This document shows, piece after piece, positions 1 to 29,096 of a stretch of DNA of 41,700 nt. This DNA comes from Candidatus Limnocylindrales bacterium. GTDB taxonomy: Bacteria > Chloroflexota > Limnocylindria > Limnocylindrales > CSP1-4. The stretch lies in assembly GCA_046704485.1 (NCBI GenBank), contig JBJKRU010000338.1:1-41700 (forward strand), written 5' to 3'. Positions within the stretch are counted from its first letter, which is position 1, and every line of letters begins with the position of its first letter. Position numbers and translations under genes: made by a program. Under the pieces are notes generated by a model. The model was given only the letters and a program-made list of their open reading frames with translations. It was not told the DNA's origin and did not search any database.

Positions 1-1062
1 GTGTACGCGATCATCCTGGCCGGCGGAGGCGGCACCCGGTTGTGGCCGCTGTCGCGACCCGAGCGGCCGAAGCCCTTTCTCGCGCTGACCGGCGACCGGA
101 CGCTCCTGCAGATGACATGGGACCGGATCGTGCCGGGCCTGCTGACGCCCGCCGACGTGTTCGTGGTCACCGCGGCAGGCTACGCCGACCTGGTCCGCGA
201 GCAGCTCTCGTCGCTGCCGGCCGGCAACCTGGTCCTGGAGCCGATCGCCCGCAACACGGCGGCCGCGATCGCCCTGGCGACGGAGGCGATCGACCGCGCC
301 GACGACGAGGCAATGGTGGTGCTGCCGGCGGATCATCTGATCCGAGACGAGGCGCGGTTCCGCGAGCTGCTCGCCGACGCGGCCCGTCTGGCGGAGGCTG
401 TCCCGGCCCCGCTCGTCACCCTCGGCATCACCCCGACCGGCCCCGAGGCCGGGTTCGGCTACATCGGCGCGGGCGCAAGGCTGCCCGGCCCGGCCCAGGC
501 TGCCATGGTGGCGCGGTTCGTGGAGAAGCCCTCGGCGTCGACTGCGCGCGACCTGTTGTGCGGACGGGACCTCGTCGCGTGGAATGCCGGCATCTTCATC
601 TGGCGGCGTGATGCGATCCGGCAGGCCCTGGTGGCAAGCGCTCCGGACATCATGGCGGCCGTTCGAGACGGCCTGGCGAATGGCCAGACGCTGCTTGAGA
701 CCGCGTACGCGAGCGTCCGCGACGCGTCGATCGACTACGCGGTGATGGAGCCGGCGGCTGCCGACGGCCGCGTGGTGGTTCTCCGGGCCGAGGTGGGGTG
801 GAGCGATCTCGGGTCGTGGAGCGCCGATCGAGTCGTGCTGGTCGAGGCCGGCTCGGGGCACGGGGCGTCTCTGGGGGTCGTGGGGCGGGGACCGCGGAGG
901 GATGTCGACAGTTCGGGCGTCCTGGTGTTCGCCGATCGGCGCCTCGTGGTGACCATCGGGCTCCAGGACATCGTCATCATCGACACGGACGACGCCCTGC
1001 TGGTGGCCGCACCCGAGCGCGCTCAGGATGTCCGGGGCCTCGCGAAGGAGCTCGAAGCGTGA
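1..1062 (+). CDS. manC: Mannose-1-phosphate guanylyltransferase-like NDP-sugar pyrophosphorylase (short form, no cupin PMI domain)
   Basis: GTG at nt 1, 353 aa. The N-terminal loop ILAGGGGTRLWPLSRPERPKPF is typical of ManC/CpsB-type GDP-mannose pyrophosphorylases. VVLPADH and GITPTGPEAGFGYI are also present. It is a clear paralogue of the interrupted gene at 27895-29019. Confidence 0.85.
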   Translation: MYAIILAGGGGTRLWPLSRPERPKPFLALTGDRTLLQMTWDRIVPGLLTPADVFVVTAAGYADLVREQLSSLPAGNLVLEPIARNTAAAIALATEAIDRADDEAMVVLPADHLIRDEARFRELLADAARLAEAVPAPLVTLGITPTGPEAGFGYIGAGARLPGPAQAAMVARFVEKPSASTARDLLCGRDLVAWNAGIFIWRRDAIRQALVASAPDIMAAVRDGLANGQTLLETAYASVRDASIDYAVMEPAAADGRVVVLRAEVGWSDLGSWSADRVVLVEAGSGHGASLGVVGRGPRRDVDSSGVLVFADRRLVVTIGLQDIVIIDTDDALLVAAPERAQDVRGLAKELEA

Positions 1063-1133: not shown

Positions 1134-2939
<1,806 letters not shown>

Positions 2940-2979
2940 TCGCTGCCTCTCGCTTCTGGGACGGGCCGCTCGCGGCCCC

Positions 2980-3399
2980 CTAATCCGGCTGGACCACGCC
3001 GATGGTGAGCAGGATGTTGGCGTAGATCCGCTGCTCGCCGGTGGCGATCGCCAGGGCGCAGTCGGGGCCGCGCGCCATGTCGTAGAACTCGAACCGGCCG
3101 AGGCGGGTGAGCCCGGTGCCGGGCAGCAGGCGCCGGAAGTCCCCGTAGATCGAGGGCTCGCTCCCGTCGTCGGGGCCCATGACGTGCGCCGCCTCGACCG
3201 GGATCGCGTCGGCGATGACGTCCAGCACGTCGGTGACGGTCAGCTTGCCCGGCTCGAGGTTCAGGAACACCCGGCGGGCCGACGGGTTGGAGCGCGTCGC
3301 CAGCGGGTAGTTCCCGTCGGCGATCAGGACCTGCGCGCCGTGGCCGGCCTCGCCCAGGGCGGCCAGGATCTGGGGGTGGAGCAGACGAGTCCTCAGCAT
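2980..3399 (-). CDS. fucU: L-fucose mutarotase (RbsD/FucU family)
   Basis: 139 aa. [32 protein letters not shown] and the C-terminal NILLTIGVV are typical of RbsD/FucU. An AAGGAGG SD sits just upstream of the ATG. The gene ends 40 nt upstream of fucI. Confidence 0.9.
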
Positions 3400-3699: not shown

Positions 3700-4659
3700 C
3701 TATGCGACGACGCCGTCCGCGGGGAGTCGGGCGAGGAGCAACCGCGCGGGCTCCATGCCTCGGGGCGTGACGCGGTATCCACCGGCCGCTGCGGGCACGA
3801 CGGCGGTCTCCAGCGAACCTATCGGGAGCTCCCATCCCGGACCGCGCAGGGCCACCGATCCAGTCGCTGCCGTGACAACGTGCGGCGTGGCACCGTCGGA
3901 ATCGAGGTCGAGCGTCGTGCCGCCCTCGAGGTCGACGACGTCAAGCGCGAAGTGCTCGCCGGCGACCAGGCGATCCCTGCCCTGGTGTCGCTCCGGGAGG
4001 CGGAGCCGCTTGGCGGCACGCCTGGCGTCGACGCAGGCGAGCGCCTGCTCCGTGTGCAGCCCGCGCCCGGCTGTCGCAGGCCGACCCCAATCATCGACGC
4101 GGTAGGTGACGTCGGACGCCTGCTGGATCTCGTAGAGGAGCGCGCCCGGTCCGACCGCATGCAGGGATCCTGCCTCGACCAGGAAGGCATCGCCGGGGGA
4201 AACGGCGTGGTGCTGAAGGAGCGGCGCCACTGCACCGCTGCGGATCGATTGCCGCAGGCCCTCGACCGTTACGCCAACCTTGACGCCCAGGAGGAGTTCG
4301 GCGCCGGGCGCAGCCTCGAGGCAGTACCAGGCCTCCTCCTTGCCCACCGCCCCGGGGCCCTCCAGCGCGACCGCCATCGCATCGTCGGGGTGGACCTGCA
4401 CTGACAGCCAGTCCGCAGGGTCCAGCAGCTTGACGAGCAGCGGGAATGCGCCCGGCCTCGGCGCGGCCGTCCCGATCAGGGAAGCCCCGAACTCGCGAAC
4501 GAGGGAGCCGAGCTGCCGGCCAGCCACCTCGCCTGACGCGGCCGTCGCCGCGGGCCCGGTGAACCAAGCCTCGCCAACCGGCACGTCGCCGACTCGGCCA
4601 AGTCGGCACCCACCCCAGACACGGGGACGCAGCTCTGGGACGAGAAGGAAGGGCTCCAC
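3700..4659 (-). CDS. manA: Class I mannose-6-phosphate isomerase (cupin)
   Basis: 319 aa, GTG start. Motifs are RPRVWGG, LLVKLLDPADWLSVQVHPDD and EAGSLHAVGPGALLYEIQQASDVTYRVDDWGR. This matches the Bacillus-type short PMI pattern (SIQVHPDD ... HAIG.G ... SD.TYR.YD). Confidence 0.85.
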   Translation of the reverse strand: MEPFLLVPELRPRVWGGCRLGRVGDVPVGEAWFTGPAATAASGEVAGRQLGSLVREFGASLIGTAAPRPGAFPLLVKLLDPADWLSVQVHPDDAMAVALEGPGAVGKEEAWYCLEAAPGAELLLGVKVGVTVEGLRQSIRSGAVAPLLQHHAVSPGDAFLVEAGSLHAVGPGALLYEIQQASDVTYRVDDWGRPATAGRGLHTEQALACVDARRAAKRLRLPERHQGRDRLVAGEHFALDVVDLEGGTTLDLDSDGATPHVVTAATGSVALRGPGWELPIGSLETAVVPAAAGGYRVTPRGMEPARLLLARLPADGVVA

Positions 4660-4671
4660 CGGGCAGTCCGT

Positions 4672-5529
4672 CTAGAACCCGCGCAGTGCCGTGCTCGATC
4701 TGGCAGGCAACCCCCGATGAGGAGTACGGCGGAGCACGACGTACTCGATGTTCCTCGCGGCGCAGAACTCGCGCTTCTCCGGCTGGTCGCCGTCCTCGTT
4801 CACGACGTAGTACCGCGGCTGGATGTCGGCGATCTCCGGTTCGGCGTCCATCCATCCACTCCCGGATGAGATCAGGCAGCGGTGGACCTGGCGGACGGCG
4901 CCGACCATGTAGCGCCGCTCGTCCTCGCCCTGGAGTGGATGCCCGGGACCTTTGAGCAGTCCCACGTTGCGATCACTTCCGACCACGACGTAGAGGTCCC
5001 CCAGTGCGGATGCGTCCATGAAGAAGCGCACGTGTCCCGAATGGAGCCAGTCGAAGCAGCCGGTGACGACGACCCGTGGGCCATCGCCGGCTCGGGGCGG
5101 ACGCACCGGGGCCCCGTCGGCCTCCCATCCCCGGTAGCCTCGGAGGTCTGCCCGGCTGATGGCCCGAAGATCCCTTCCCCGATCCATCCATGCCTTCGAG
5201 AGGACGGGGTCGTCGTCCTCGTCCCGCACCACGAGTGTCTGGAACCTCGAAGCCAATCGGGCCACGTCAGAGCGAGCTTCAAGGTCGGTCACCCCGACGG
5301 TGTTGACGCAGCGGAGCGAGGCTGCGAGGAACCGGCGCTCAGTCTCCCCGAAGGTCGGCGGTCGTCCCGTTGTGCGCTCGACGAGCGAATCGGAGGAGAC
5401 CCGGACGTGGAGCGGCCCGAAGCGGGCGGCCTCCTGCAGGAAGCGCACATCGGACGAACTGAGGTTGTCCAAGCTGGCGGCGACCACCACCGAGGACCGC
5501 GGCCGTGCGAGGGCCGCAGGTGCGATCAC
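4672..5529 (-). CDS. Tandem cytidylyltransferase-fold protein (degenerate N-terminal copy plus intact HxGH C-terminal copy); sugar-phosphate nucleotidyltransferase candidate
   Basis: I place the start at GTG 5529, which makes a GTGA overlap with the upstream stop. The ORF-track ATG 5901 adds 124 codons that overlap the upstream gene out of frame. The C-terminal half has VVVTGCFDWLHSGHVRFF, the HxGH motif of TagD/RfaE-domain-II type enzymes. The N-terminal half (VVVAASLDNLSSSDVRFL) looks like the same fold without HxGH. Confidence 0.7.
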   Translation of the reverse strand: MIAPAALARPRSSVVVAASLDNLSSSDVRFLQEAARFGPLHVRVSSDSLVERTTGRPPTFGETERRFLAASLRCVNTVGVTDLEARSDVARLASRFQTLVVRDEDDDPVLSKAWMDRGRDLRAISRADLRGYRGWEADGAPVRPPRAGDGPRVVVTGCFDWLHSGHVRFFMDASALGDLYVVVGSDRNVGLLKGPGHPLQGEDERRYMVGAVRQVHRCLISSGSGWMDAEPEIADIQPRYYVVNEDGDQPEKREFCAARNIEYVVLRRTPHRGLPARSSTALRGF

Positions 5530-6332
5530 TGCAGCCGCACCGAGATCCGAAGCGAACCCGGCACTTCGCGCTCCGCCACAACAATCAGGTAGCCGCCACC
5601 GCACCCCGAGTACATCGCCCCTGCGCTCTCGGCCTGGTAGGCGGCGAGGAGTGCGCGCAGGTCCAATGTGATGGTCGGATGGGCATGAACGTGCGGCAGG
5701 ATCTCGTCCCAGCACAGAGCTGTCTCGTTGAACGACGCGCCCAGGGCGGCGGGGTCCCGGTTGAGGATGGCGTCGTAGCAGGCCTTGCCACTCGCGCTCA
5801 GCCGGGCGATCCAAGCAGGGTCCAGACGCTTGATGCCGAGTGGCGAGTACCCGGCGGGCCGCTGCATCACGGGGACCAGATGCAGGACTTCCTCGAGCCA
5901 CCGCGCAGCCGCCGGGTCACAGCTGTTCTCGACATGTGATGGGAAGAGGCCGCCTTCGACAGTGAAGTCGTAGTCGAGGCGGCTCACGCCCGGGTACACG
6001 AGGCCGCACATGTCCTGTGACCCGGAAGGCTCTGCGGCGCCCTCGTTCTCCGCGGCGTAGAGGATCCGGACCAGCTGTGCAGGGTCGCCAGGTGGAAGAG
6101 CATCTCCCCACAGTCGCTGGGCGACGGCACGGGTGCCCGTCGCCATGCCGCACCGGTCCATGTACCGGACATTGGGCTCCAGGGAGACGACGACCATCGA
6201 GCCCGGTGGCTCGGGGTTGAACTCGGACATCCACGGCTGGTCGATCCAGCCGCCCGCCAGCTGGAGGCGGTAAGGAAGCCGACCGATGGCGCTGGAGAGC
6301 GCCATCGAAGAACCGGTGACGGACTCCAGCAT
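5526..6332 (-). CDS. GHMP-family (HddA/fucokinase-like) sugar kinase-like protein with atypical ATP loop
   Basis: 268 aa. RLQLAGGWIDQP resembles RISFAGGGTD of COG2605-type kinases. GSQDMCGLVYPG resembles the GxQDQ motif. SGCGGGYLIVV matches GHMP motif 3. The PxGSGLGSS loop is not recognisable (CGMATGTRAV sits in its place). Confidence 0.6.
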   Translation of the reverse strand: MLESVTGSSMALSSAIGRLPYRLQLAGGWIDQPWMSEFNPEPPGSMVVVSLEPNVRYMDRCGMATGTRAVAQRLWGDALPPGDPAQLVRILYAAENEGAAEPSGSQDMCGLVYPGVSRLDYDFTVEGGLFPSHVENSCDPAAARWLEEVLHLVPVMQRPAGYSPLGIKRLDPAWIARLSASGKACYDAILNRDPAALGASFNETALCWDEILPHVHAHPTITLDLRALLAAYQAESAGAMYSGCGGGYLIVVAEREVPGSLRISVRLQ

Positions 6333-6335
6333 TCC

Positions 6336-7397
6336 TCAGCCCTCGACGACGCGCTTGCCCGCCTTTCGGAGGGCGTACTGCTCCTTGATCCAGTCGTAGG
6401 TGGCGGCCATGCCGGTCCGGAGCGGCGTGTTCGGCTCCCAGCCGAGGATCTCCTCGATGAACGTGTTGTCGCTATTCCGCCCGGCGACCCCCTTCGGGGC
6501 GTCGAGCTCGTAGGTGCGGTTCAGCGTCACCCCGGCCAGGTCCTCGACGATCGAGACGAGTTCGTTGATCGAGACGAGCTCCGACGAGCCCAAGTTGATC
6601 GGGGTGGCGGTCAGCTCGGGCGTGTGCATGATCAGATCGATGCCGTGCAGACAGTCATCGATGTAGCAGAAGCTGCGCGTCTGGGTGCCGTCGCCCCAGA
6701 TGGAGATCTCGAGGTTCCCGGAGTCTTGCGCCTCGATCACCTTGCGGCACATGGCGGCCGGCGCCTTCTCGCGGCCACCGAACCAGGTGCCGTTGGGGCC
6801 GTAGATGTTGTGGAAGCGCGCAATGTGCGTCTCGAGTCCGCGTTCCGCGGTGTACTCCTGGCACACCATCTCGCTGAACAGCTTCTCCCAGCCATAGCCG
6901 CGCTCGGCCATCGCGGGGTAGGCATCAGACTCCTTGAGGGCGATGGCTTCCGGCGTCTTCTGCAGGTCCGTGTTGTAGGCGCAGGCGGACGACGAGAAGA
7001 AGTACCGCTTGACGCCGGCCCGCCAGGCAGCCTCGGTCATGTTGGTGTTGATGAGCACGCTCCGCAGGCATTCGACGCGGAAGCGCTCGATGAAGCCCAT
7101 GCCGCCCATGTCGGCCGCCAGGTTGTAGACCTCGGTTGCCCCCTTGACCGCCTCCGTCGCGTTCTCCGCGATGGAGAGGTCGGCCGAGATCGACTCGACC
7201 CCCGGCACCACCACGTACCACTCCGGGAGCGGCTTCCGGTCGATTGCGCGGATCCGCGCGTAGCCCTGGTCCGCGAAGTACTTGGCGAGCGATCCACCGA
7301 TGAAGCCGCCTGCCCCAGTGATGACGATCAGTTCGTCCTTGTGCAAGCCGCGCGCAACGCTCGTCCCGGGGATGGTGTCGTTGAACTCCGTCGGCAT
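6336..7397 (-). CDS. gme: GDP-mannose 3,5-epimerase
   Basis: I place the start at ATG 7397, with SD GAAGGAAGG upstream, rather than ORF-track 7619. It is collinear by eye with plant GME. Shared blocks include ITGAGGFIG, NLAADMGGMGFI, FFSSSACAY, LKESDAYPA, YGWEKL, RFHNIYGPNGTWFGGREKAPAAMCRK, WGDGTQTRSF, GRNSDN and LGWEP. Confidence 0.9.
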   Translation of the reverse strand: MPTEFNDTIPGTSVARGLHKDELIVITGAGGFIGGSLAKYFADQGYARIRAIDRKPLPEWYVVVPGVESISADLSIAENATEAVKGATEVYNLAADMGGMGFIERFRVECLRSVLINTNMTEAAWRAGVKRYFFSSSACAYNTDLQKTPEAIALKESDAYPAMAERGYGWEKLFSEMVCQEYTAERGLETHIARFHNIYGPNGTWFGGREKAPAAMCRKVIEAQDSGNLEISIWGDGTQTRSFCYIDDCLHGIDLIMHTPELTATPINLGSSELVSINELVSIVEDLAGVTLNRTYELDAPKGVAGRNSDNTFIEEILGWEPNTPLRTGMAATYDWIKEQYALRKAGKRVVEG

Positions 7398-7435: not shown

Positions 7436-7464
7436 TGCTAACGCTATCACTGATAACGCTAACA
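7436..7464. promoter_or_regulatory. Two tandem type-1 operators (TGCTAACGCTATCA and TGATAACGCTAACA), 15-bp register
   Basis: Sites at 7436-7449 and 7451-7464 both fit TGnTAnCGnTAnCA. They lie between the gme start (7397) and the LacI stop (7576). The distal site overlaps the candidate -10. Confidence 0.6.
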
Positions 7465-7575: not shown

Positions 7576-8643
7576 TCAGGAGAGCTCGGCGTCCAGCTCT
7601 CCGTCCCGGTCAGACGCAAGCGCGGCGAGGAGCGGGATGCCGCTCGACTTGCGGATCACGAGCTCCGTCGGGAGCACAACGTCCTGCGCCCGATGTCGGC
7701 CAGGGTGCTGGATCCGCTCCACGAGCAGCTCCACGGCACGCCGGCCCATCTCGAACGAAGGTTGCGAGACCACCGTGAGGAACGGGAACGTGACCATGGC
7801 AGACGGGAGATCGTCGAAGCCAACCACTGCCACGTCCTCCGGGACCCGGATACCCATGTCCTCGAGAGCGTGCAGCACCCCGATGGCGATGAAGTTGTTG
7901 CCAGCGAAGATCGCGGTCGGACGATCTCGCCGCGACATGGTCGCCCGAGCCATCGCGGCCCCGCCGTCGATGGTGAACTCGCCATGGATGACGTGGACGG
8001 ACCGGTTGGGCCCCGCCTCTCGCATCGCATCGCGGAAGCCCGCTGCTCGATCGACAGCGGTGGAGACGGAGCGGGGGCCGGTCAGGACCGCGGTGCGAAC
8101 GTGGCCCAGGGACGCGATGTAACGGCCCATCTCGTAGGCTCCGTGCCGAGAGTCCGTTCGGACGACGTCAACCGAGCCTCGGCGGATGCGCCGGTCGAGC
8201 ACCACCACGGGGGTGTCCTGCTCACGGCACTTCTGGATGACGCTGTCGCCAGACCCGGCCGGAACGATCAGGATCCCGTCGATCTGGCGCTGCAGCAGCA
8301 TCGTGACGTACCGCTCCTCCTCGTTGAGGTCCTCGTTGCTGTTGCCCATGATGACCATGAGCCCAGCCTCGTTGGCCGCGGCCTCGACCCCGTGGGCGAG
8401 CATGGTGAAGAACGGGTTGGTCAGGTCGGTGACGAGCAACGCGATGAGGTTGGTCCGCTTCGACCGCAGGCTGCGGGCAAGCACGTTCGGCATGTAGCCT
8501 GTCTGGGCGATCGCCTGTTCGACGCGCTGCCGGACATCGGCGCTGACGGGCCCCGTCCCGCGCACGACCCGGGACACGGTCATCGGCGAGACGCCCGCCA
8601 ACTTGGCTACATCAACGAGTCGCGCCATCAGCCTCCGCCCCAT
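7576..8643 (-). CDS. LacI-family transcriptional repressor (LacI-1)
   Basis: N-terminal HTH ARLVDVAKLAGVSPMTVSRVVRG and YMPNVLARSLRS, followed by a periplasmic-binding-fold sugar domain. The alternative ATG at 8628 is equally possible, and neither start has a well-spaced SD. Confidence 0.9.
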   Translation of the reverse strand: MGRRLMARLVDVAKLAGVSPMTVSRVVRGTGPVSADVRQRVEQAIAQTGYMPNVLARSLRSKRTNLIALLVTDLTNPFFTMLAHGVEAAANEAGLMVIMGNSNEDLNEEERYVTMLLQRQIDGILIVPAGSGDSVIQKCREQDTPVVVLDRRIRRGSVDVVRTDSRHGAYEMGRYIASLGHVRTAVLTGPRSVSTAVDRAAGFRDAMREAGPNRSVHVIHGEFTIDGGAAMARATMSRRDRPTAIFAGNNFIAIGVLHALEDMGIRVPEDVAVVGFDDLPSAMVTFPFLTVVSQPSFEMGRRAVELLVERIQHPGRHRAQDVVLPTELVIRKSSGIPLLAALASDRDGELDAELS

Positions 8644-8763: not shown

Positions 8764-8791
8764 TTGACTGGCTCGGGGCATATGATAACGT
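8764..8791 (+). promoter_or_regulatory. Candidate promoter of the corrinoid methyltransferase operon
   Basis: TTGACT (8764-8769), a 16-nt spacer, then TAACGT (8786-8791). Confidence 0.45.
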
Positions 8792-8796
8792 AAACA
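8783..8796. promoter_or_regulatory. Type-1 operator (TGATAACGTAAACA) in the LacI-1 / methyltransferase divergent region
   Basis: It has one mismatch to TGnTAnCGnTAnCA and overlaps the candidate -10. Confidence 0.5.
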
Positions 8797-8955: not shown

Positions 8956-10281
8956 ATGGGAGACGCAGGCAAGGATCGCGCGATCCTGCGCGAACTCGGG
9001 GCCCGTGTCGCCGAGCTCGCGGCGCTGCCGGTCCAGGCTGAGACGATAGCCGACTGGAAGGCGCTGAACGGCCTTCGGCCGATGCGGCCAATGGTGGCGA
9101 TCGACCAGCTGCCATGGCACGAGATGGCGTCGAGCCCCGAGCTCGAGACGCAGTGCGACGATCCGTTCAACCGCGGTGTCGAGATCGACCTGCGGCGGAT
9201 CCTGTACCGCTGGAACCACTTCCGTGCTGACATGGTGGTGGAGCCTGAATTCCTGATCCCCAAGGTCCTTCGCCTCGATGGGTTCGGCGTCGAGATGCAC
9301 GAGGAGACCGAGGCTGTCGACGCCGCGAACAACATCGTCTCGCACCACTTCTTCGACCAGCTCCAGCACGAGGACGACGCCGACAAGATCCGGACACCCA
9401 ACATCTGGCTCGACGAGGCTGAAACGGCGCGGATCGAGGCCCAAGCGCACGAGATCTTCGACGGCGTGCTGCCTGTCCGCCTGCAGGGATGGGTCCCCAG
9501 CACCAACCAGTGGCCCGGCCTCGAGTCCCAGCCAGCGACTCGGGCCCTGGTCCACGACTGGCCCGACGAGCTCCTCGCTGGCGGAGCGAACTTCTGGGAC
9601 ACGATCGAGTTCTGGCGGGGCGCCGACGCGATCCTCCTCGACCTCATGGACCGGCCTGACCACCTGCACCGGATCATCGACCGTCTCGTCACCGCCTATC
9701 TCGGCATGCTGGACCAGATGGAGGCCAAGGGCCTGCTCGGGCGCTCGATGTCCCTGGTGCACTGCACCCCAGCGTGGACCGATGAGCTCCCTCACGCGGG
9801 CTTCGACCCCGAGCGGCCGCGGGCAGAGGACCTGTGGACGATGGGCATGGCGCAGGTCTTCACTTCAACCTCGCCGAAGATGTTCCGCGAGTTCGAGGTC
9901 GAGCACACCAAGCGGTGGTTCGCCCGCTTCGGCCTCGGCTACTACGGATGCTGCGACGTGCTCGACCGGCACGTTGAGCACATCCGGGTGATCCCGAACG
10001 TGCGGAAGATCTCGATGTGCCCCTGGGCGAACGTCGAGCGCGGCGCCGACGGCATGGGGCACGACTTCGTCATGTCCCGCAAGCCCAACCCCGCGCACCT
10101 CGCCATGGACAGCTGGGATCCCGGCGCGGTCGAGAAGGAGCTGCGGGCGACTGCGGAGGCCTGCCGGCGAACCGGCACCAATGTCGAGTTCATCCTCAAG
10201 GACGTGAGCACGATCCGCTACCAGCCGCACCGGCTGGAGGAGTGGGTGGACGTCGCGATGAGGGTGGCGAGGGATTACTGA
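8956..10281 (+). CDS. URO-D-superfamily (MtaA/CmuA-like) methyltransferase-family protein, long form
   Basis: 441 aa, with GGAGG about 10 nt upstream. The C-terminal ~200 aa follow the URO-D-like barrel pattern (YYGCCDVLD, ISMCPWAN, SRKPNP, ILKDVSTI). The N-terminal half is not assignable by eye. Confidence 0.6.
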   Translation: MGDAGKDRAILRELGARVAELAALPVQAETIADWKALNGLRPMRPMVAIDQLPWHEMASSPELETQCDDPFNRGVEIDLRRILYRWNHFRADMVVEPEFLIPKVLRLDGFGVEMHEETEAVDAANNIVSHHFFDQLQHEDDADKIRTPNIWLDEAETARIEAQAHEIFDGVLPVRLQGWVPSTNQWPGLESQPATRALVHDWPDELLAGGANFWDTIEFWRGADAILLDLMDRPDHLHRIIDRLVTAYLGMLDQMEAKGLLGRSMSLVHCTPAWTDELPHAGFDPERPRAEDLWTMGMAQVFTSTSPKMFREFEVEHTKRWFARFGLGYYGCCDVLDRHVEHIRVIPNVRKISMCPWANVERGADGMGHDFVMSRKPNPAHLAMDSWDPGAVEKELRATAEACRRTGTNVEFILKDVSTIRYQPHRLEEWVDVAMRVARDY

Positions 10282-10322
10282 CAGATGCCCAGGCTGAATC
10301 GCCGTCACAAGGAGCCAACCCG

Positions 10323-10952
10323 ATGGTAGATCTGCAGGAGCTCGGCACGGCTATCGAGGCGGGCGACCGCGCGAGCGCCACCCGACTGACCCGAGAGGCA
10401 CTCGACAACGGGGCGCCGCCGGCGACGATCCTCGAGGCGATGACGGGCGCGATGGGTGTCATCGGCCGCAAGTTCCAGGACGGCGAGATCTTCGTCCCCG
10501 AGATGCTCATCAGCGCACGGGCCATGAAGGAGGCGACCGTCATCCTGGAGCCGGTGCTCGTGGAGGCTGGGATCCGTCCCGAGTACACCGCGGTGGTCGG
10601 CACTGTCGAGGGCGACCTGCACGACATCGGCAAGAACCTCGTCGGCATGATGCTCAAGGGCGCGGCGATCGAGGTTGTGGACCTCGGTGTGAACGTGACG
10701 GCCGATCGGTTCGTCGAGGCAGCGCGGGAGCATGACGCCCGCCTCATCGGCCTCAGCGCCCTGCTGACCACCACCATGCCCAACATGCGCAAGGTCGTCG
10801 AGGCGATCAAGGCGGCAGGTGTGGACGCCAAGGTGATGATCGGCGGCGCCCCGACGACACCAGAGTTCGCTGCCCAGATCGGGGCCGACGGCTATGCGCC
10901 GGATGCGGGCGCCGCCGTTGACCTCGCCAAGGCGCTGCTCGAGAGCAAGTAG
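10323..10952 (+). CDS. Cobalamin-binding corrinoid protein (MtaC/MtbC/MetH-B12-domain type)
   Basis: I place the start at ATG 10323, with AAGGAG upstream, rather than ORF-track 10017. A helical cap domain precedes a Rossmann-like domain. The Rossmann-like domain has all three signatures: GDLHDIGKN (DxHxxG), LSALL (SxL) and IGGAP (GG). Confidence 0.9.
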   Translation: MVDLQELGTAIEAGDRASATRLTREALDNGAPPATILEAMTGAMGVIGRKFQDGEIFVPEMLISARAMKEATVILEPVLVEAGIRPEYTAVVGTVEGDLHDIGKNLVGMMLKGAAIEVVDLGVNVTADRFVEAAREHDARLIGLSALLTTTMPNMRKVVEAIKAAGVDAKVMIGGAPTTPEFAAQIGADGYAPDAGAAVDLAKALLESK

Positions 10953-10972
10953 GGCCAGCTGGGAGTCGCGCG

Positions 10973-12166
10973 ATGGGGATGTTCGAGACGGTCGGCCGCA
11001 CCAGCGGCCTCGGGGAGCCACGCAAGGCGTCGACCCTGGCGAAGGTTGAGCGCCTCGCGAAGACCTACAGGCACGAGGAGGCGGATCGGGTCCCGATCAG
11101 CGATTTCTTCTGGGGCGGTTTCAAGGACCGGTGGCGCCGAGAACTCGGTCTGCCGGCCGACGCCGACCCGTACTACTACTACGACCTGGACCTGATTGTC
11201 ACGGTCCCGAACATGGACCCGCATATCCGGGCGTTCCAGACGATCCGCGAGGACGAAGAGGAAGTCGTCATCAGGACCGGCTTCGAGACGACGATCCGCA
11301 AGCGGTTCGACCTGCCGATGCCCGAGCAGATGAGCTGGGAGACGGACTCCATCGAGAAGCTTGAGGCGTTCGAGTTCGACGACCCCGCTGATCCCCGTCG
11401 CTACTTCGAGGCAGGCGACAACCAGATTGCCGGTGTTGGCGACGGGTTCGAGCGCAACAGCCCGCCGTGGGTCGACACGGTCCGATCCCTCCGCCCTGAT
11501 TTCGCCGTCTACGGCAGCATCACCGAGTCATCGGAGATCTGCACCCGCCTCCTGGGCCAGCTGAACACCCTGATGTGGATCGGCGAGTACCCGGAGCGGT
11601 TCGGCGAGCAGCTACTGCGGATCGGCGAGTTCAGCTATGAGGTTGCCAAGGCCCAGATCGAAGCGGCCGATGGCCTCCTTGACGGCATGGTGATCTGGGG
11701 AGATGTCGCCTACCGCAAGAGCCTCTTCATGGCCCCCGACTACTGGCGCCGCTACTACAAGCCGACGGTGGCGCGCATCATCGCGTTGTCGCACGACCAC
11801 GGGCTGCCAGTCATGTACCACGGATGCGGCAATGCGAACGCAATCCTCGAGGACATGATCGAGATCGGCTTGGACGGCTACAACCCGCTGGAGGCAAAGG
11901 CCGACCTCGACGTCGTGACACTGCGCGAACGGCTTGGGCACCGGCTCACGTTCTGCGGCAACAGCGACATCCGCGTCTGGGAGCGAGGCGACAAGGCTGA
12001 GGTCCGGCACGAGGTGCTTCATCGTCTGCGCGCTGCCGAGGGCGGCGGGTACGTCTTCATGTCCGACCACTCGGTGGCCTCGGATGTATCGGGCGAGATG
12101 TACGACTACATTGTCAGGCTTGTGCGCGAGCACGGCGACTACCCTCTCGCCCTGCCTGCCGAGTAG
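10973..12166 (+). CDS. URO-D-superfamily methyltransferase (MtaA/CmuA-like)
   Basis: 397 aa. VMYHGCGNANAILEDMIEIGLDGYNPLE, FCGNSD and GGGYVFMSDHSV follow the MtaA/URO-D C-terminal pattern. GGGAG lies 7 nt upstream. Confidence 0.75.
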   Translation: MGMFETVGRTSGLGEPRKASTLAKVERLAKTYRHEEADRVPISDFFWGGFKDRWRRELGLPADADPYYYYDLDLIVTVPNMDPHIRAFQTIREDEEEVVIRTGFETTIRKRFDLPMPEQMSWETDSIEKLEAFEFDDPADPRRYFEAGDNQIAGVGDGFERNSPPWVDTVRSLRPDFAVYGSITESSEICTRLLGQLNTLMWIGEYPERFGEQLLRIGEFSYEVAKAQIEAADGLLDGMVIWGDVAYRKSLFMAPDYWRRYYKPTVARIIALSHDHGLPVMYHGCGNANAILEDMIEIGLDGYNPLEAKADLDVVTLRERLGHRLTFCGNSDIRVWERGDKAEVRHEVLHRLRAAEGGGYVFMSDHSVASDVSGEMYDYIVRLVREHGDYPLALPAE

Positions 12167-12481: not shown

Positions 12482-13546
12482 GTGAGTCGGCATGAGGACG
12501 CCGACGGTCGAGCGATGAACCCGGCCTTCGAGCTTGTCCCGCTCGCCCAGTCGGGCCTTCAGGTCACAAGACTGGGGTTCGGGGCTGCCACGATCGGCGG
12601 GCTCTTCGACGTCGTCACCGACGAGGGTGCGGTTGCCGCGGTCGACCGCGCCTACGATCTGGGGATCCGGTACTTCGACGTAGCGCCCCTCTACGGCTAC
12701 GGCCAGGCCGAACGCCGGGTCGGCGCCGCGCTCGAGGCTCGGCCGCGGGACTCATTCGTCCTGTCGACGAAGGTCGGTCGTCGGTTGGTCCCGCGCGACC
12801 GGATCACCACGGAGATGGACGTCGACCTGCAAGCGGTCGGCGGCAAAGAGGACTTCTACTACCCCGAGGGGACGCCGCCCGTCCGGCCAGTGTTCGACTA
12901 CAGCTTCGACGGCACCATGCGGTCGGTCGAGGAGAGCCTCGGGCGACTCGGCATGGACCGGGCCGACATCCTGCTGATTCACGATCCGGACAACCACGTC
13001 GACGCCGCGATGCGGGGAGCCTACCCGGCCCTCCGGCGTCTCCGGGACGAGGGGGTGGTCCGGGCCATCGGCGTCGGCATGAACCAGGCGACCCTGCTCG
13101 CTCGATTCGCCGAGCGCTGCGACCTCGATCTCGTCTTGGTCGCCGGTCGATACACGCTCCTCGAACATGACGCGCTCGATGAACTGCTGCCGATCTGCGC
13201 CCGCCGCGGGACCGCCGTTGCCGTGGCAGGCGTCTTCAACAGCGGGATCCTCGCCAACCCGCGCCCAGGCAGTCGGTTCAACTACGTTCCCGCTGACGGA
13301 GCACTCGTGGAACGGGCCGAGCGACTTGCCTCCATCGCAGCGTCTCACGGCGTGTCACTCAAGGCCGTCGCTCTCCAGTTTGCGATTGCCCACCCAGCGG
13401 TCTCCTGCATGGTGGCGGGGGTGCGCACGGTTGCACAGCTGGAGGACTACCCGGCGTTGTTCGCCGAGCGCATTCCTGCCGACCTCTGGGCCGAGCTGAA
13501 GACGGAGCGCCTCCTTCCGGCCGAGGCTCCTGTCCCTGTCGGCTGA
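12482..13546 (+). CDS. Aldo-keto reductase, L-fucose/L-galactose (D-threo-aldose) 1-dehydrogenase-like
   Basis: Motifs are GFGAATIGG, DVAPLYGYGQAERRVG, LSTKVGR and IHDPD. The GTG at 12482 has GGAGG 8 nt upstream. ATG 12515 is an alternative start. Confidence 0.8.
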   Translation: MSRHEDADGRAMNPAFELVPLAQSGLQVTRLGFGAATIGGLFDVVTDEGAVAAVDRAYDLGIRYFDVAPLYGYGQAERRVGAALEARPRDSFVLSTKVGRRLVPRDRITTEMDVDLQAVGGKEDFYYPEGTPPVRPVFDYSFDGTMRSVEESLGRLGMDRADILLIHDPDNHVDAAMRGAYPALRRLRDEGVVRAIGVGMNQATLLARFAERCDLDLVLVAGRYTLLEHDALDELLPICARRGTAVAVAGVFNSGILANPRPGSRFNYVPADGALVERAERLASIAASHGVSLKAVALQFAIAHPAVSCMVAGVRTVAQLEDYPALFAERIPADLWAELKTERLLPAEAPVPVG

Positions 13547-13623
13547 TCATTGAGCGGCCCCACCAGGGCCAGAAGCGACCACAGATCGTCCCGGCCATTC
13601 CGGGAGCGGCACAGGAGGACACG

Positions 13624-14514
13624 GTGCGCCTGATCTCGCTGGAGGGGCCGCACGGGGCACCTCAGCTGGGCGTTGTTGTCGACGGCCGGGTGCTGGCGGC
13701 GGTGGACTTGCTGCCTGACGCGCCGCCAGACATGGCCGGGCTGCTGGCTGGAGACCCGGACCTCTTGGTGGAGCTTGCAGCCGCGGCGACCGCAGCCGGC
13801 CCAGAGGCTGGCGTGCAGCTCGACGCCGTCCGTTTGCTCGCGCCCGTCCCGGCGCCGGGGAAGATCGTGGCGATCGGCCGGAACTACGCGGACCACGCGG
13901 CGGAGGAAGGCGCAGATGCGCCGGGAGCGCCGCTGATCTTCGCGAAGTTCCCGAGCTCCGTCATCGGGCCCCGCGGCGAGATTCGCTGGGATCCTTCCCT
14001 GACAGCCCAGGTCGACTACGAAGCAGAGCTTGCCGTCGTGATCGGCCGATCGGCCTCCAGGGTCGCAGAGCGGGAGGCGCTGGACTACGTGCTCGGCTAC
14101 ACGTGCCTGAACGACGTGACCGCACGTGATCTCCAGTTCGGCGACGGCCAATGGGTGCGCGGCAAGTCGCTGGACACGTTCTGCCCGATGGGCCCCTGGC
14201 TTGTGACACCGGATGAACTCGGCAACCCCGATGACCTGCGGATCACCTGCACGCTCAACGGCGAAGAGGTGCAGGACGACCGCACGTCATCGATGTACCA
14301 CGGCGTCGCACGACTCATTAGCTACTGCTCGCAGGCGTTCACGCTCATGCCGGGTGACGTCATCGCGACGGGGACCCCGGCCGGGGTCGGGATCTTCCGG
14401 ACACCGCCACTCCTTTTGACCGACGGCGATGTGGTCGTCGTGTCGATCGAGGGCATCGGCGAGCTGGTCAACACGTGCCGTTTCGAGCGCGCGCAGGAGG
14501 CAACACTGGCATGA
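13624..14514 (+). CDS. Fumarylacetoacetate-hydrolase-family protein (2,4-diketo-3-deoxy-6-deoxyhexonate hydrolase candidate)
   Basis: GTG start with SD CAGGAGGA. Motifs are GRNYADHAAE, DYEAELAVVIGR, GYTCLNDVTARD and GDVIATGTPAGVG. Confidence 0.9.
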   Translation: MRLISLEGPHGAPQLGVVVDGRVLAAVDLLPDAPPDMAGLLAGDPDLLVELAAAATAAGPEAGVQLDAVRLLAPVPAPGKIVAIGRNYADHAAEEGADAPGAPLIFAKFPSSVIGPRGEIRWDPSLTAQVDYEAELAVVIGRSASRVAEREALDYVLGYTCLNDVTARDLQFGDGQWVRGKSLDTFCPMGPWLVTPDELGNPDDLRITCTLNGEEVQDDRTSSMYHGVARLISYCSQAFTLMPGDVIATGTPAGVGIFRTPPLLLTDGDVVVVSIEGIGELVNTCRFERAQEATLA

Positions 14515-15512
14515 CCGAGTCACCCGTCGAGCGCTTCTTGGTCACCGGCGCACTCGGCTGCATTGGGGCGTGGACCGTGCGTGACCTGGCTCGGGAAGGT
14601 GTGCCAGTTGTCGCCTTCGACGTCGCGGCATCCCCGCGCCGTGTGCGCAACCTGTGCACAGACGAGGAGTTGGAGCGAATCACCTTCGTCACCGGCGACA
14701 TCACGGAGCTGTCCTCGGTGGAGTCGGCCCTGGACGATCACGGGATCACGAACGTCATCCACCTTGCCGCTCTCCAGGTGCCGTTCTGCCGTGCTGATCC
14801 TGTGCTCGGTGCACGGGTGAATGTCGTGGGCACCGTGAACGTGCTGGAGGCGATACGACGCCGCAGCGACCGGATCCGGCAATTCGTGTACACGGGCTCG
14901 GTGGGCATGTTCGACGCCGCTGACGCCGACCCGGGCACTGGGCGACTTGAGGCGGACGCAGCTGCCCATCCCGTCAACCACTACGGCGTCTACAAGCAGG
15001 CGAACGAGGGCAACGCCCGGGTGTATTGGCTTGACAACGGCGTCTCTTCGATCGGATTGCGGCCGATGACGGTGTACGGGCCGGGCCGGGACCAGGGGCT
15101 GACCAGCACGCCGTCGAAGGCCATCCTCGCCGCCCTCCTCGGTCAGCCGATCACGATCGGCTTCAGCGGGAGGACGCTGTTCCAGTACGCGGACGATGTG
15201 GCGCGGACTCTGATCATGGCGAGCCGCGCCGCATTGCGGGGGGCCAACACGTTCAACCTTGGCGGCGAGCTGGTGGATCTGCACGAATTCGTGCACTACG
15301 TGGAGGAACAGGTTCCGGGCAGCGAAGGCCTCATCGCCGTGGACGGCGCACCACTGCCCTTCCCCGAGGACATCTCAGCTGAAGGCTTGGCGGCGGTCGG
15401 ACCTGCCCCGGTAAGGCCGATCCGCGAAGGCATCGCCGAGACGATCGCCTTCTTCCGCCGCCTGATGGATTCCGGTCGGCTGGTGCCGGTCGAGCACGGT
15501 CTCCAACCCTGA
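14511..15512 (+). CDS. Extended SDR (NAD-dependent epimerase/dehydratase family)
   Basis: ATG 14511 overlaps the FAH stop (ATGA). Motifs are VTGALGCIGAW (GxxGxxG) and YGVYK (YxxxK). Confidence 0.85.
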   Translation: MTESPVERFLVTGALGCIGAWTVRDLAREGVPVVAFDVAASPRRVRNLCTDEELERITFVTGDITELSSVESALDDHGITNVIHLAALQVPFCRADPVLGARVNVVGTVNVLEAIRRRSDRIRQFVYTGSVGMFDAADADPGTGRLEADAAAHPVNHYGVYKQANEGNARVYWLDNGVSSIGLRPMTVYGPGRDQGLTSTPSKAILAALLGQPITIGFSGRTLFQYADDVARTLIMASRAALRGANTFNLGGELVDLHEFVHYVEEQVPGSEGLIAVDGAPLPFPEDISAEGLAAVGPAPVRPIREGIAETIAFFRRLMDSGRLVPVEHGLQP

Positions 15513-26925: not shown

Positions 26926-27788
26926 GACGCCACCTGAAGGCGGCCCTGCGGAATAGCGTAGAAGCGGGCTGCCGTCCCACCCAGGATGGCCGCCCGGTCA
27001 TCTGGCGGCAGTTCATCGAACAGCAGGCTCAGCTGTTCCCACACGCGAAGGTAGCCGCCGGCGAGCACGGAGATCGGCCAGTCGCCGCCGAACATGAGCC
27101 GGTCTGGCCCGAACAGCTCGAGTGCGGTCTCGAGGTAGGGCCGGATGTCATCGGCGTTCCAGTCCCTCTGATCGCCGGCCGACGGGTAGAGCCCGGACAC
27201 CTTCGCGAAGACGAGCGGGTTCTCAGCCGCGGTTGCGATCAGCGTCCGCCACGGCTCAGCGCTCGGGGCCTTGATGGGCGGCTTGGACAGGTGGTCGATG
27301 ACCATCCGCAGGCGCGGGTGCCGCTCCGAGATGACGGGGACGTGTTCCAGGTGCCGGGGGAGGACCGACACGACGTCGAACGGTATACCAGCGTCCTCAA
27401 GGAGCCCGAGGCCCTCGTCGACGTCGGGACGCAGGAGCCAGTCGGGGTCCGGGCGAGTGTGGATCAGGTTCCTGATGCCCGCAAAGGCCGGCTCGTCGCG
27501 CAGTTCCGCCAGGAGCTGGGCTGCCCTGGCGGGCTGGTCGAGAGGAACCCACGCGACGACGGCGGCGATCTCCGGGTGCGCTCGCGAGACGTCGAGCATG
27601 TATCGAGTGTCGTCCCAGTTGTCTGCTGCCTGGACGAGAACGGTCCGCTGGACGCCAGTCGCCCTGAGGAGCGGCGCCAGCTCGTCGAACTCGATCGCGC
27701 GATTGATCGGGCTCAAGTCCTCGGTGAGCCAGTCATATGCCGCGCGGGCCGGATTCCAGAAGTGCTGATGGGCGTCAATCACCGTCAT
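26922..27788 (-). CDS. Amidohydrolase_2 (COG3618) family, L-fucono/L-rhamnono/L-galactono-1,5-lactonase-like
   Basis: MTVIDAHQHFWNP (HxH) and MVIDHLSKPP are present. I prefer the start at ATG 27788. The ORF-track start 27812 is a TTG lying inside the operator palindrome, only 13 nt downstream of the -10 hexamer. Confidence 0.8.
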   Translation of the reverse strand: MTVIDAHQHFWNPARAAYDWLTEDLSPINRAIEFDELAPLLRATGVQRTVLVQAADNWDDTRYMLDVSRAHPEIAAVVAWVPLDQPARAAQLLAELRDEPAFAGIRNLIHTRPDPDWLLRPDVDEGLGLLEDAGIPFDVVSVLPRHLEHVPVISERHPRLRMVIDHLSKPPIKAPSAEPWRTLIATAAENPLVFAKVSGLYPSAGDQRDWNADDIRPYLETALELFGPDRLMFGGDWPISVLAGGYLRVWEQLSLLFDELPPDDRAAILGGTAARFYAIPQGRLQVAS

Positions 27789-27806
27789 CGTCTGAGCCGA
27801 CCTCGC

Positions 27807-27822
27807 AGACAAACGTTTGCTC
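27807..27822. promoter_or_regulatory. Type-2 operator (AGACAAACGTTTGCTC; perfect core CAAACGTTTG)
   Basis: A 10-bp perfect palindrome at 27810-27819 sits immediately downstream of the candidate -10. It resembles PurR/GalR-class LacI-family boxes. Confidence 0.55.
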
Positions 27823-27894: not shown

Positions 27895-29019
27895 TCAGGC
27901 TGGATGCGCTGGGTCCGGTTCCTGCGGGATGCGGGCGCGGGCCCACTCCGCCGCCGCTGACTTGACCTCCTGGGCGGCATCGGCTGCAGCGACCAGGATG
28001 ACGTCGCCCGCGTCCACGACGATCACGCCGTCTAGCCCGACCGTCACGATCGGGGTGCGGCCCGCGATCACCAGCGACTCGTGCGATCCGATGTCGCGCC
28101 GGGGCCCCCATCCCACCGTCCCAGGGGACCGGCATTGATCGGCGCTCCCACGAAGTGATCGTCGGGCCAACTCGTCGCGCAGCGCGGTCCAAGACCCGAG
28201 GTCGGACCAGCCCACATCAGCGCGCAGCACTGCCACTCACCCTTCGGCGGCGGCCGCCTCGAGTACCGCGTAGTCAACGGAATCGTCCTGAATCTGCGCG
28301 TAGGCGGCCGCGACGGCTGCCGGCCCAGCTGCCACGGCGGGTGCCAGGAGCCGCAGCAGGCCTGGCACGTACCGATCGAGCGCAGACCGGATGGCGTCCA
28401 CCCTCCAAGCGAAGATCCCGGCGTTCCAGGTGACGGCCGGCTCCTCAGCAAGAAGCCTCGATGCCGTGTCACGCGAGGGCTTCTCGACGAACCTGCGCAC
28501 GGCCCGTCCGCCGTGGGACCCGAGCGCGCCGGTGCCGGCCACGATGTAGCCATAGCCGGTCTCCGGCCCACCAGGCGTGATCCCCAGGGTGACGAGGGGC
28601 GGGTCCGACTGGTCGGGCCCGCCGGCGGCCGTGTCCACGGCCCGCCGCAGCACCTGCCGGAAGCCGTCCTCGTCGTCGACAACGTGGTCCGCGGGCAGGA
28701 CGAGCATCACCTCGTCGTCGGCACGGCCCAAGGCGAGTGCCGCATAGGCGATCGCTGCTGCCGTGTTGCGGCTGGCCGGTTCAGCGAGCAGCATGCCCGG
28801 GTCGAGCTCGGGCAGTTGTGCCCTGACGAGGTCTGCATACGCCGCATTCGCGACGACAGCCACGTCGCCCGGCTGGAGCAGGTCGGGGACCAAGCGATCC
28901 CACGTCATCTGCAGCAGCGAACGGTCACCCAAGAGAGGCAGGAACGGCTTCGGTCGCTCGGGGCGGGACAGCGGCCACAGCCGAGTGCCCCCACCGCCGG
29001 CGAGGATCACAGCGAACAC
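27895..29019 (-). pseudogene. manC: manC paralogue interrupted by one in-frame TGA (28237-28239) that is immediately followed by GTG
   Basis: ORFs 28237-29073 and 27895-28236 are contiguous and in the same frame. Joined, they are collinear with the gene at 1-1062: AAAEG*VAVLRADVGWSDLGSW versus AAADGRVVVLRAEVGWSDLGSW. The likely start is GTG 29019, with GGAGG 6 nt upstream. GC3-rich codon usage continues after the stop. Confidence 0.75.
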
Positions 29020-29066
29020 ATCGTGCCTCCGGATGCGGCGGCCGCGTTGCTGGCGCGGATCAGCGC

Positions 29067-29096
29067 TGGACAAACCTTTGTCCGGTTTGGTAGACT
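29067..29096 (+). promoter_or_regulatory. Candidate lutABC promoter
   Basis: TGGACA (29067-29072), an 18-nt spacer, then TAGACT (29091-29096). Confidence 0.4.
29068..29083. promoter_or_regulatory. Type-2-like perfect inverted repeat GGACAAA-CC-TTTGTCC
   Basis: 7+7 perfect dyad. It matches the 27807 site at 12 of 15 aligned positions (GACAAACsTTTG) and overlaps the -35 and spacer of the candidate lutA promoter. Confidence 0.5.

Follow-up and report, generated by a model that had tools for sequence, protein, structure and literature searches.

A LacI-linked gme operon in a Limnocylindrales bacterium and a possible GDP-sugar route for L-galactose

What does GME, a GDP-mannose 3,5-epimerase, do in an operon that lies behind the gene of a LacI-family repressor? 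The question is raised by a 41,700-nt stretch (G+C ~66-74%, hereafter the window) of Candidatus Limnocylindrales bacterium contig JBJKRU010000338.1, in which positions 3700-7397 are occupied by four minus-strand open reading frames (ORFs), all with coding-type base composition at third codon positions (GC3). They encode GME (6336-7397), a 268-AA truncated fucokinase-like GHMP protein that we call X (5526-6332), a 285-AA protein with a tandem cytidylyltransferase fold, CT (4672-5529), and a 319-AA class I mannose-6-phosphate isomerase, PMI (3700-4659), which is the terminal operon gene here. An earlier, sequence-only reading had described a tight four-gene unit with gaps of 3, -4 and 12 nt, and direct inspection of the junctions agrees: the TGA of GME is followed after 3 nt by the ATG of X, X and CT overlap in a stop/start GTGA at 5526-5529, and 12 nt separate the TAG of CT from the GTG of PMI. 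We propose that the unit is probably an operon, repressed by LacI, for the catabolism or salvage of a hexose of L-galacto configuration, L-galactose being the likeliest candidate. It would follow the logic of the Leloir pathway with GDP in place of UDP. X would act in it as a beta-L-galactose 1-kinase and CT as an L-galactose-1-phosphate (L-Gal-1-P) guanylyltransferase.

The epimerase had been called unmistakable, and phmmer searches bear this out. Over residues 24-346 the protein matched solved plant and algal GMEs with E values from 5e-82 to 5e-79 (8sg0, 5e-82; 2c59, 6.7e-80) and it is ~50% identical to characterised GMEs, the next-best short-chain dehydrogenase/reductase (SDR) families (MoeE5, GDP-fucose synthase) reaching E 1e-25 or worse. 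All GME motifs (SSAC, YGWEKL, RFHNIYGP, GGREKAPAA, QTRSF, GRNSDN) are present in the alignment and carry the equivalents of AtGME S143/C145, Y174/K178, N203, K217, R243 and R306, mapped by motif with reconstructed numbering. In AtGME, S143, Y174 and K178 form the catalytic triad and Cys145 and Lys217 the acid-base pair, with R306, R243 and N203 as further functional residues (PMC8787198). Judged by its residue content, the operon GME is catalytically complete. The GME equilibrium is reported to be unfavourable toward GDP-L-galactose (GDP-L-Gal) from GDP-mannose (GDP-Man), which is the forward direction for ascorbate biosynthesis (review PMC8787198).

X is the least conventional member of the unit. 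As a single sequence it gave no match in Pfam, NCBIfam or PDB; the Pfam GHMP_kinases_N and GHMP_kinases_C models do not recognise it, and weak GHMP_kinases_C matches were obtained only in distant fused relatives. It has more than 6000 homologues with 60-83% identity. Those that bear a name are all labelled hypothetical, and none of the 120 listed carries a precomputed Pfam domain. The AlphaFold (AF2) model of X (predicted local distance difference test score, pLDDT, 85.9; predicted TM-score, pTM, 0.86) was matched best by Foldseek to the GHMP sugar kinases 4usk, 9iip, 3k85 and 4n3o (E 4e-7 to 1e-5; query TM-score, TMq, 0.54-0.60), the nearest structural relatives being WcbL heptokinase, the fucokinase domain of Bacteroides FKP, and HddA. 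A narrow profile of the X family (A1) reached FKP only sub-significantly (E 0.24). A broader profile (A3), built from more divergent representative relatives, recovered the Bacteroides L-fucokinase FKP with E 6.5e-15, followed by HddA 3k85 (4.5e-8), WcbL (6e-6) and mevalonate kinase (2e-5). By model and profile, X is a GHMP-fold protein nearest to L-fucokinase, and its first description as an HddA/fucokinase-like GHMP protein holds.

Grouped in this way with fucokinase/HddA-type GHMP kinases, X also keeps the catalytic and L-fucose-contacting residues. In FKP, Asp762 is the general base and Arg592 stabilises the transition state; Trp599 stacks on fucose C4-C6, hydroxyl binding at C3 and C4 falls to Asp601, Thr602 and Gln761 and triphosphate binding to the loop 712-720, and Glu751 is essential (PMC11982464). 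The equivalent positions of X, scored in alignment A1 of 40 homologues, are invariant: R22 (FKP R592), W29 (W599), D31 (D601), G104 (G759), Q106 (Q761) and D107 (D762), with an invariant Gln, Q32, at the position of T602. Motif I, in which PYRLQLAGGWIDQP aligns with PVRIDMAGGWTDTP, contains R22, W29 and D31. Further along, GSQD of X (104-107) aligns with FKP GWQD (759-762), and motif III, SGCGGGY (242-248), has its aligned counterparts in GAGGGGY (FKP) and SGAGGGGF (3k85). E95 is also invariant and corresponds to FKP E751 by spacing only. The ATP loop had been described as atypical, and indeed RCGMATGTR at the P-loop position (residues 60-68, at a helix N-terminus in the model) is degenerate compared with the canonical glycine-rich PxGSGLGSS or GSGLGTSS, the motif by which ATP phosphates are bound; the consensus of the broader family, RSGxATSTR, aligns with SGLGTSS of HddA 3k85. 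In one related locus (L083), X is followed ~9.6 kb downstream by a second, divergent copy (37% identity), a hint that paralogues may differ in specificity.

CT had been read as one degenerate and one intact HxGH nucleotidyltransferase domain, and the two halves can now be told apart. Residues 152-246 scored 32.5 bits against Pfam CTP_transf_like PF01467 (cutoff 21) and 51 bits against TIGR00125 (cutoff 27.7), and are RfaE domain II-like. Among 30 homologues, TGCxDxLHSGH and RSSTxLRG (here TGCFDWLHSGH and RSSTALRG) are invariant in the C-terminal half; the N-terminal half has SLDNLxSxDVRF at the HxGH position and is predicted to be catalytically dead. The AF2 model (pLDDT 89.1) superposed full-length on human ECT 4xsv/3elb (Foldseek, E 2e-14, TM 0.70, ~300 columns). 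Because the N-terminal half has no HxGH, the C-terminal half is intact and the model fits the tandem ECT, CT is by sequence and model a fused pseudo-dimer with one live active site. Its best single-domain relative in Foldseek was HldC, a heptose-1-phosphate adenylyltransferase (28-29% identity), which places the live half nearest to a sugar-1-phosphate adenylyltransferase. NCBIfam equivalog scores were far under their cutoffs (rfaE_dom_II, 69.6 vs. 181.5; g3p_cytidyltrns, 34.5 vs. 165.4). Heptose activation of the HldE/HddA type was rejected on these scores and on the lack of GmhA/GmhB, LPS (lipopolysaccharide) or capsule genes in the window and among recurrent neighbours.

The arrangement is widespread. 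Relatives of X, sought in one genome per species and confirmed by tblastn, were found in at least 534 genome stretches. These span at least six phyla (Chloroflexota, Verrucomicrobiota, Planctomycetota, Acidobacteriota, Latescibacterota and Armatimonadota, among others), and one of the carriers, Anaerolinea thermolimosa, is in culture. Neighbours were counted in 84 loci in all, 55 of which had full flanks. GME lies immediately upstream of X in 77 of the 84 (53 of the 55 with full flanks), and CT downstream of X in 65 (42 of 55). A ManC-type guanylyltransferase, mostly directly after CT, is found in 23-24 (17 of 55) and a LacI homologue near X in 34 (26 of 55). FucU/FucI genes are near X in 8 of the 84 loci and PMI in only 3, and PMI was therefore rejected as a core operon member; the conserved fourth member is the ManC-type guanylyltransferase.

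X and CT are functionally coupled, to judge by their adjacency in these loci and by fusions in distant relatives. An exhaustive profile search returned 795 representative clusters related to X, many of them fusions. These comprise CT-X proteins (~380 AA), a tandem CT-X protein in which both HxGH motifs are apparently intact (P0258), an L-rhamnose-mutarotase-family (RhaM) domain followed by CT and X (P0281), a PNP_UDP_1 nucleoside phosphorylase/nucleosidase-family domain followed by CT and X (P0341), and a fusion of a GT2 glycosyltransferase with X (P0296). Between the fused CT domain and the live C-terminal half of the window CT, identity is 47-48% (E 1e-36 to 3e-42), and downstream of the gene for the mutarotase fusion (L085, 8001-9782) come an MFS transporter and a GH29 fucosidase. 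The X-CT fusions argue for consecutive action of both on a free sugar, as in FKP and HldE. The broader X family may represent an uncharacterised class of sugar kinase/nucleotidyltransferase salvage enzymes.

The repressor gene (7576-8643, minus strand; Pfam LacI helix-turn-helix and Peripla_BP_1/3 domains) lies directly upstream of the operon in the same direction. Between it and GME, 39-67 nt upstream of the GME start codon, are two tandem 14-bp LacI-type operators on the minus strand (7436-7464), namely TGTTAGCGTTATCA at 7451-7464 and TGATAGCGTTAGCA at 7436-7449. A pattern search allowing up to 2 mismatches found 4 such sites in the window vs. 0.13 expected by chance. The third, TGTTTACGTTATCA (8783-8796, minus strand, 2 mismatches), is intergenic between lacI and a divergent plus-strand operon, and the fourth, TGATATCGTTACCA (29102-29115, minus strand, 2 mismatches), lies 29 nt upstream of a ManC-like gene. 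The palindrome TGGTAACGTTACCA, perfect or as a near variant, occurs within 300 nt upstream of GME in 19 of 74 related loci. The tandem operators had been said to overlap a candidate promoter; the operators stand, and a sigma-70 scan upstream of GME detected no promoter by which the overlap could be verified. Terminator-like matches were at chance level only. Rfam and tRNA scans of the whole window were empty, so that no cobalamin or other riboswitch is involved.

PMI matched the B. subtilis class I enzyme 1qwr with E 1.7e-27, passed the cutoff of Pfam PMI_typeI_cat PF20511 (25.6 bits; cutoff 22) and has QVHPDD, EAWY and LHA in the alignment, in keeping with its first assignment to class I. Its NCBIfam manA score of 67 bits is under the cutoff of 116.2, so that the identity of its substrate is not assured. 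The window was also said to hold two manC-type genes, fucI/fucU and an HAD gene. All are present, with the qualification that the second ManC-like gene is interrupted. ManC1 (1-1062, plus strand) is an intact mannose-1-phosphate (Man-1-P) guanylyltransferase gene of the ManC type with NTP_transferase and ManC_GMP_beta-helix domains, and its product is the candidate for Man-1-P release. The second gene (27895-29073, minus strand; NTP_transferase and GMP_PMI, E 8e-55) is the one that follows the fourth operator-like site. It is 55% identical to ManC1 at full length, across an in-frame TGA at 28237-28239 (GAA GGG TGA GTG), a codon for Arg in ManC1; a pseudogene, a sequencing error and a read-through site are all possible explanations. 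A gene for a FucU/RbsD-family mutarotase (2980-3399, minus strand; Pfam RbsD_FucU, E 2.9e-30), a candidate supplier of the beta-L anomer, lies 300 nt downstream of PMI. GalT and GalE were not found among the window ORFs scanned.

From the observed gene order, folds, conserved residues, synteny, fusions and operator sites we infer every substrate, which nucleotide CT uses and which way the flux runs. GH29-type alpha-L-fucosidases/galactosidases, for instance, would liberate L-galactose (L-Gal), ABC or MFS transporters would bring the free sugar into the cell, and a mutarotase would provide the beta-L anomer. X, as a minimal fucokinase-like GHMP enzyme, would phosphorylate the sugar at C1 to beta-L-Gal-1-P, which the active C-terminal domain of CT would convert with GTP to GDP-L-Gal and pyrophosphate (PPi). 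GME would then work in its thermodynamically favoured direction, from GDP-L-Gal to GDP-D-Man, and a ManC-type guanylyltransferase would consume PPi, setting Man-1-P free and re-forming GTP. The last steps, through mannose-6-phosphate (Man-6-P) to fructose-6-phosphate (Fru-6-P), would fall to a phosphomannomutase encoded elsewhere and then to the operon PMI. The PPi and GTP of the CT and ManC steps cancel, so that the two enzymes would jointly take the part of GalT, and the net reaction would be L-Gal + ATP -> Man-1-P + ADP. A precedent for the first two steps exists in FKP, which turns L-galactose into GDP-L-galactose, with a Km of 3.3 mM vs. 34 uM for L-fucose. The sequence-only reading had likewise run the genes in the catabolic direction, from an L-hexose to Fru-6-P, and every check it proposed that could be run in silico favoured a catabolic or salvage role, which supports that proposal by inference. 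With ManC rather than PMI as the fourth conserved enzyme, the proposal is also the most economical one.

Support for L-galactose salvage comes from regulators and transporters of the sugar-utilisation type and from the operator that is common to the gme operon and a ManC-like gene. All ORFs up to 8 kb away from X in 81 loci were sorted into families by unsupervised clustering. Recurrent among them were a sugar ABC transporter of the CUT2 type (its permease in 18 loci, its binding protein in 16 and its ATPase in 10 plus 5), GH29 alpha-L-fucosidase (9 loci), AraC regulators (7 loci), FucI and FucU. MFS sugar transporters recur beside X as well. Individual loci have the order LacI-GH29-GME-X-CT beside genes for an enolase-superfamily dehydratase, a lactonase and a dehydrogenase, or GME-X-MFS, GME-X-GH29 or GH29-GME-X-ManC, the last with a sulfatase gene ~0.8 kb further downstream.

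The same enzymes would suit the opposite sense as well, and X and CT could make a GDP-L-sugar from L-galactose or L-fucose for anabolic salvage, with GME and ManC making the same donor de novo from mannose; glycosyltransferases encoded elsewhere would then use it. FKP, the closest characterised relative of X, performs such salvage for glycan fucosylation in Bacteroides, one distant X relative is the GT2 fusion described above, and the only characterised bacterial GME adjoins a glycosyltransferase gene and is assigned to LPS synthesis. Against this, no glycosyltransferase, flippase or polymerase family occurs in 5 or more of the 81 loci, and none was found among the window ORFs scanned, as the sequence-only reading had also stated. 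The recurrent neighbours are instead LacI/AraC regulators, sugar importers, GH29 and L-fucose catabolic genes, so that homologous units do recur beside sugar transporters. In addition, the placement of PMI and ManC and the GME equilibrium fit a flow toward mannose. A polysaccharide-biosynthesis locus was rejected on the same census, and we consider anabolic salvage improbable.

A second possibility is that the same succession of kinase, nucleotidyltransferase and epimerase serves another sugar, either L-gulose or D-altrose, or else L-fucose or D-arabinose if the substrate of the 'GME' were a 6-deoxy or pentose GDP-sugar. GDP-L-gulose and GDP-D-altrose are likewise among the nucleotide sugars that GME interconverts (PMC8787198). 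The genomic context is rich in L-fucose genes (FucI/FucU, GH29, a fuconolactonase-type pathway), and FKP favours L-fucose ~100-fold over L-galactose and takes D-arabinose as well. However, the conserved contacts of X are those that read the L-galacto configuration at C2-C4 in FKP, and L-gulose differs at C3. Moreover, 3,5-epimerisation of GDP-L-fucose would yield GDP-D-rhamnose, a metabolic dead end with no entry to the Man-6-P/Fru-6-P route implied by ManC and PMI; for this reason L-fucose was rejected as the GME-linked substrate and L-galactose preferred. Dedicated L-fucose pathways are, besides, already present in the window. Another sugar is therefore an unlikely substrate of the unit.

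Several observations weigh against L-galactose salvage itself. Between motif I and the P-loop, X is without ~65-85 residues found in every aligned GHMP kinase: profile positions 37-41 span residues 38-106 of 3k85, and ~36 residues in X stand against ~107 in FKP. This segment normally contributes the adenine pocket in GHMP kinases. Its absence makes binding of a phosphoryl donor uncertain, and with the degenerate P-loop the use of ATP is not assured. The nearest relatives of CT use ATP or CTP, and no enzyme of the cytidylyltransferase fold is known to us that combines GTP with a sugar-1-phosphate or makes a GDP-sugar. CT is absent from about one quarter of the loci, an adjacent ManC from most, and PMI, the link to glycolysis, is in the operon in just the three loci counted above. 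No phosphomannomutase was identified in the window, and the in-frame stop is in the window's own operator-linked ManC copy. Finally, among glycosidases the strongest link is with proteins whose annotation is fucosidase rather than galactosidase. Among the loci without CT, a few (L020, L027) have a ManC-type enzyme directly after X, and others (L003, L004) consist of LacI-GME-X only, with no adjacent nucleotidyltransferase. In CT-less loci the ManC after X may perform both nucleotidyl steps, or alternative enzymes may serve.

The shortened N-domain, the degenerate P-loop and the missing GHMP Pfam match, together with the existence of non-catalytic GHMP-fold proteins such as Gal3p and XOL-1, would also suit an X that is not a kinase at all (a sugar or sugar-phosphate binding subunit, a sensor, a chaperone for CT or GME, or a catalyst of another reaction on the GDP-sugar or sugar-1-phosphate), yet this is quite unlikely, given that the Arg/Asp pair, the Mg-site Glu E95, the P-loop T67 (and, in the broader family, S66) and motif III are invariant or almost so among proteins of 60-80% identity from different phyla, that the fusions to a nucleotidyltransferase and a mutarotase follow the pattern of known kinase/pyrophosphorylase enzymes, and that the module holds no other candidate kinase.

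The L-galactose operon, as we read it, shares its island with several other sets of sugar genes. One of them is a phosphorylative 6-deoxy-L-hexose pathway, composed of FucI/FucU (1134-3399) and of a plus-strand group at 33793-38524 that encodes a DeoR regulator, a rhamnulokinase-like FGGY kinase (E 1e-134) and a class II aldolase/short-chain dehydrogenase fusion. Genes like those of a non-phosphorylative pathway of the L-fucose/L-rhamnose type lie at 12482-15512 (plus), 21730-22950 (plus), 26922-27812 (minus) and 29730-32065 (plus), and encode an aldo-keto reductase, an FAH-family diketo-deoxy-acid hydrolase, an SDR, a UxaA/galactarate-dehydratase-like protein, an L-fucono-1,5-lactonase-like amidohydrolase and, after these, LutB/LutC-like lactate utilisation proteins. 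The trio of aldo-keto reductase, FAH-family hydrolase and SDR also adjoins GME-X in two related loci (L008, L011). At 22790-25827 and 20580-21440 (both plus) a family III CoA-transferase, a solute-binding protein, a MaoC-like hydratase and an RraA-like aldolase are encoded beside the UxaA-like dehydratase, an unusual CoA-dependent set.

Divergent from lacI, at 8956-12166 on the plus strand, are genes for a 441-AA ORF, a B12-binding corrinoid protein (MtgC/MtbC-like) and a URO-D/MtaA-like methyltransferase. The 441-AA ORF had no match in Pfam, NCBIfam or PDB; its family is widespread, with 1280 matches, and every named member is hypothetical. In a Clostridiales metagenome-assembled genome (L090) a gene of this family again has a URO-D gene for neighbour, together with genes for an AraC regulator and a glycoside hydrolase, and in a 4.6-Mb genome (L091, 5910-8242) one directly follows a GalT-type (GalP_UDP_transf) gene. 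The domain content of this three-gene unit suggests a corrinoid-dependent demethylase in the sugar regulon, possibly with O-methylated sugars as targets.

How far does the gme operon resemble known systems? Judged by its predicted enzymes, the unit would work like the Leloir pathway (GalM, GalK, GalT, GalE), of which it is not a member. Common to both would be a mutarotase, an anomeric kinase of the GHMP type, nucleotide transfer, epimerisation to a common hexose, release of a 1-phosphate, recycling of the nucleotide, and control by a LacI-type repressor. The operon would differ in using GDP rather than UDP, a double 3,5-epimerisation by GME rather than a 4-epimerisation, and a truncated GHMP kinase, in giving Man-1-P and not glucose-1-phosphate (Glc-1-P), and in having no HIT-family GalT, the exchange being proposed to be split between the CT-fold enzyme and a ManC-type pyrophosphorylase via PPi/GTP.

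FKP, with which X shares sugar-binding and catalytic residues, leads, as is proposed for the operon, from sugar through beta-L-sugar-1-phosphate to GDP-L-sugar and accepts L-galactose, and relatives of X are, like it, fused to a nucleotidyltransferase. In contrast to the operon, it has a full-length kinase domain and a pyrophosphorylase of the NTP_transferase/beta-helix type where the operon has a HIGH-motif cytidylyltransferase fold, and it feeds glycan synthesis with no link to GME, ManC or PMI. The plant Smirnoff-Wheeler pathway (VTC1, GME, VTC2/GGP, VTC4) passes through the same intermediates (Man-1-P, GDP-Man, GDP-L-Gal, L-Gal-1-P, L-Gal) with homologous ManC/VTC1 and GME enzymes, but runs the opposite way, toward ascorbate, and has a HIT-family phosphorylase and a phosphatase where the operon has a nucleotidyltransferase and a kinase.

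Pairing of a sugar kinase with a nucleotidyltransferase is also known from HldE or HldA-HldC and from HddA-HddC; among single-domain proteins the active CT domain is closest to HldC/RfaE domain II, and HddA and WcbL are structurally near X. These enzymes, however, are biosynthetic (LPS or capsule), act on heptose phosphates and are found with GmhA/GmhB and glycosyltransferases, none of which is present here, and the kinase of HldE is of the PfkB type whereas X is of the GHMP type. The oxidative L-galactose pathway of Bacteroides vulgatus consists of L-galactose dehydrogenase, a lactonase and L-galactonate dehydrogenase. This and the non-phosphorylative L-fucose routes share the presumed substrate and ecological role, and genes of the L-fucose-type oxidative route occur in the same window and in some related loci. 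They differ from the proposed route in being oxidative and in using no nucleotide sugar; the proposed route would be redox-neutral and would retain an intact hexose phosphate.

To our knowledge the oxidative pathway is the only known bacterial route for L-galactose, a sugar available from plant rhamnogalacturonan II, xyloglucan, red-algal galactans and invertebrate glycans. The roles of GME named in reviews are in ascorbate, cell-wall, LPS and antibiotic synthesis, and those in bacteria are only biosynthetic (LPS and antibiotics). We found no description of a bacterial L-galactokinase, of a GDP-L-galactose pyrophosphorylase or of nucleotide-sugar L-galactose catabolism in the searchable literature, outside which most subscription journals lie, so that this absence is not proof. 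The parts come from known superfamilies, and the logic is that of the Leloir pathway. On the wider proposition, that GME-X-CT(-ManC) is a widespread pathway with the first catabolic role of GME and with two new enzyme types (a minimal GHMP anomeric L-sugar kinase without the usual segment between motif I and the P-loop, and a CT-fold sugar-1-phosphate guanylyltransferase in the form of a pseudo-dimer with one dead domain), our judgement is evenly balanced.

If the proposal is true, sugar catabolism would gain a new, redox-neutral route by way of GDP-sugars, and GME its first catabolic role. A function would be assigned to X, whose more than 6000 homologues are called hypothetical wherever they bear a name; the family of tandem cytidylyltransferases is equally conserved. 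A compact L-galactose kinase and GDP-L-sugar synthase would be useful for the chemo-enzymatic preparation of GDP-L-galactose and L-galactosides, for which FKP, at the Km given above, is poor. For the organisms themselves, it would allow better carbon-cycling models of Chloroflexota, Verrucomicrobiota, Planctomycetota, Acidobacteriota and Latescibacterota.

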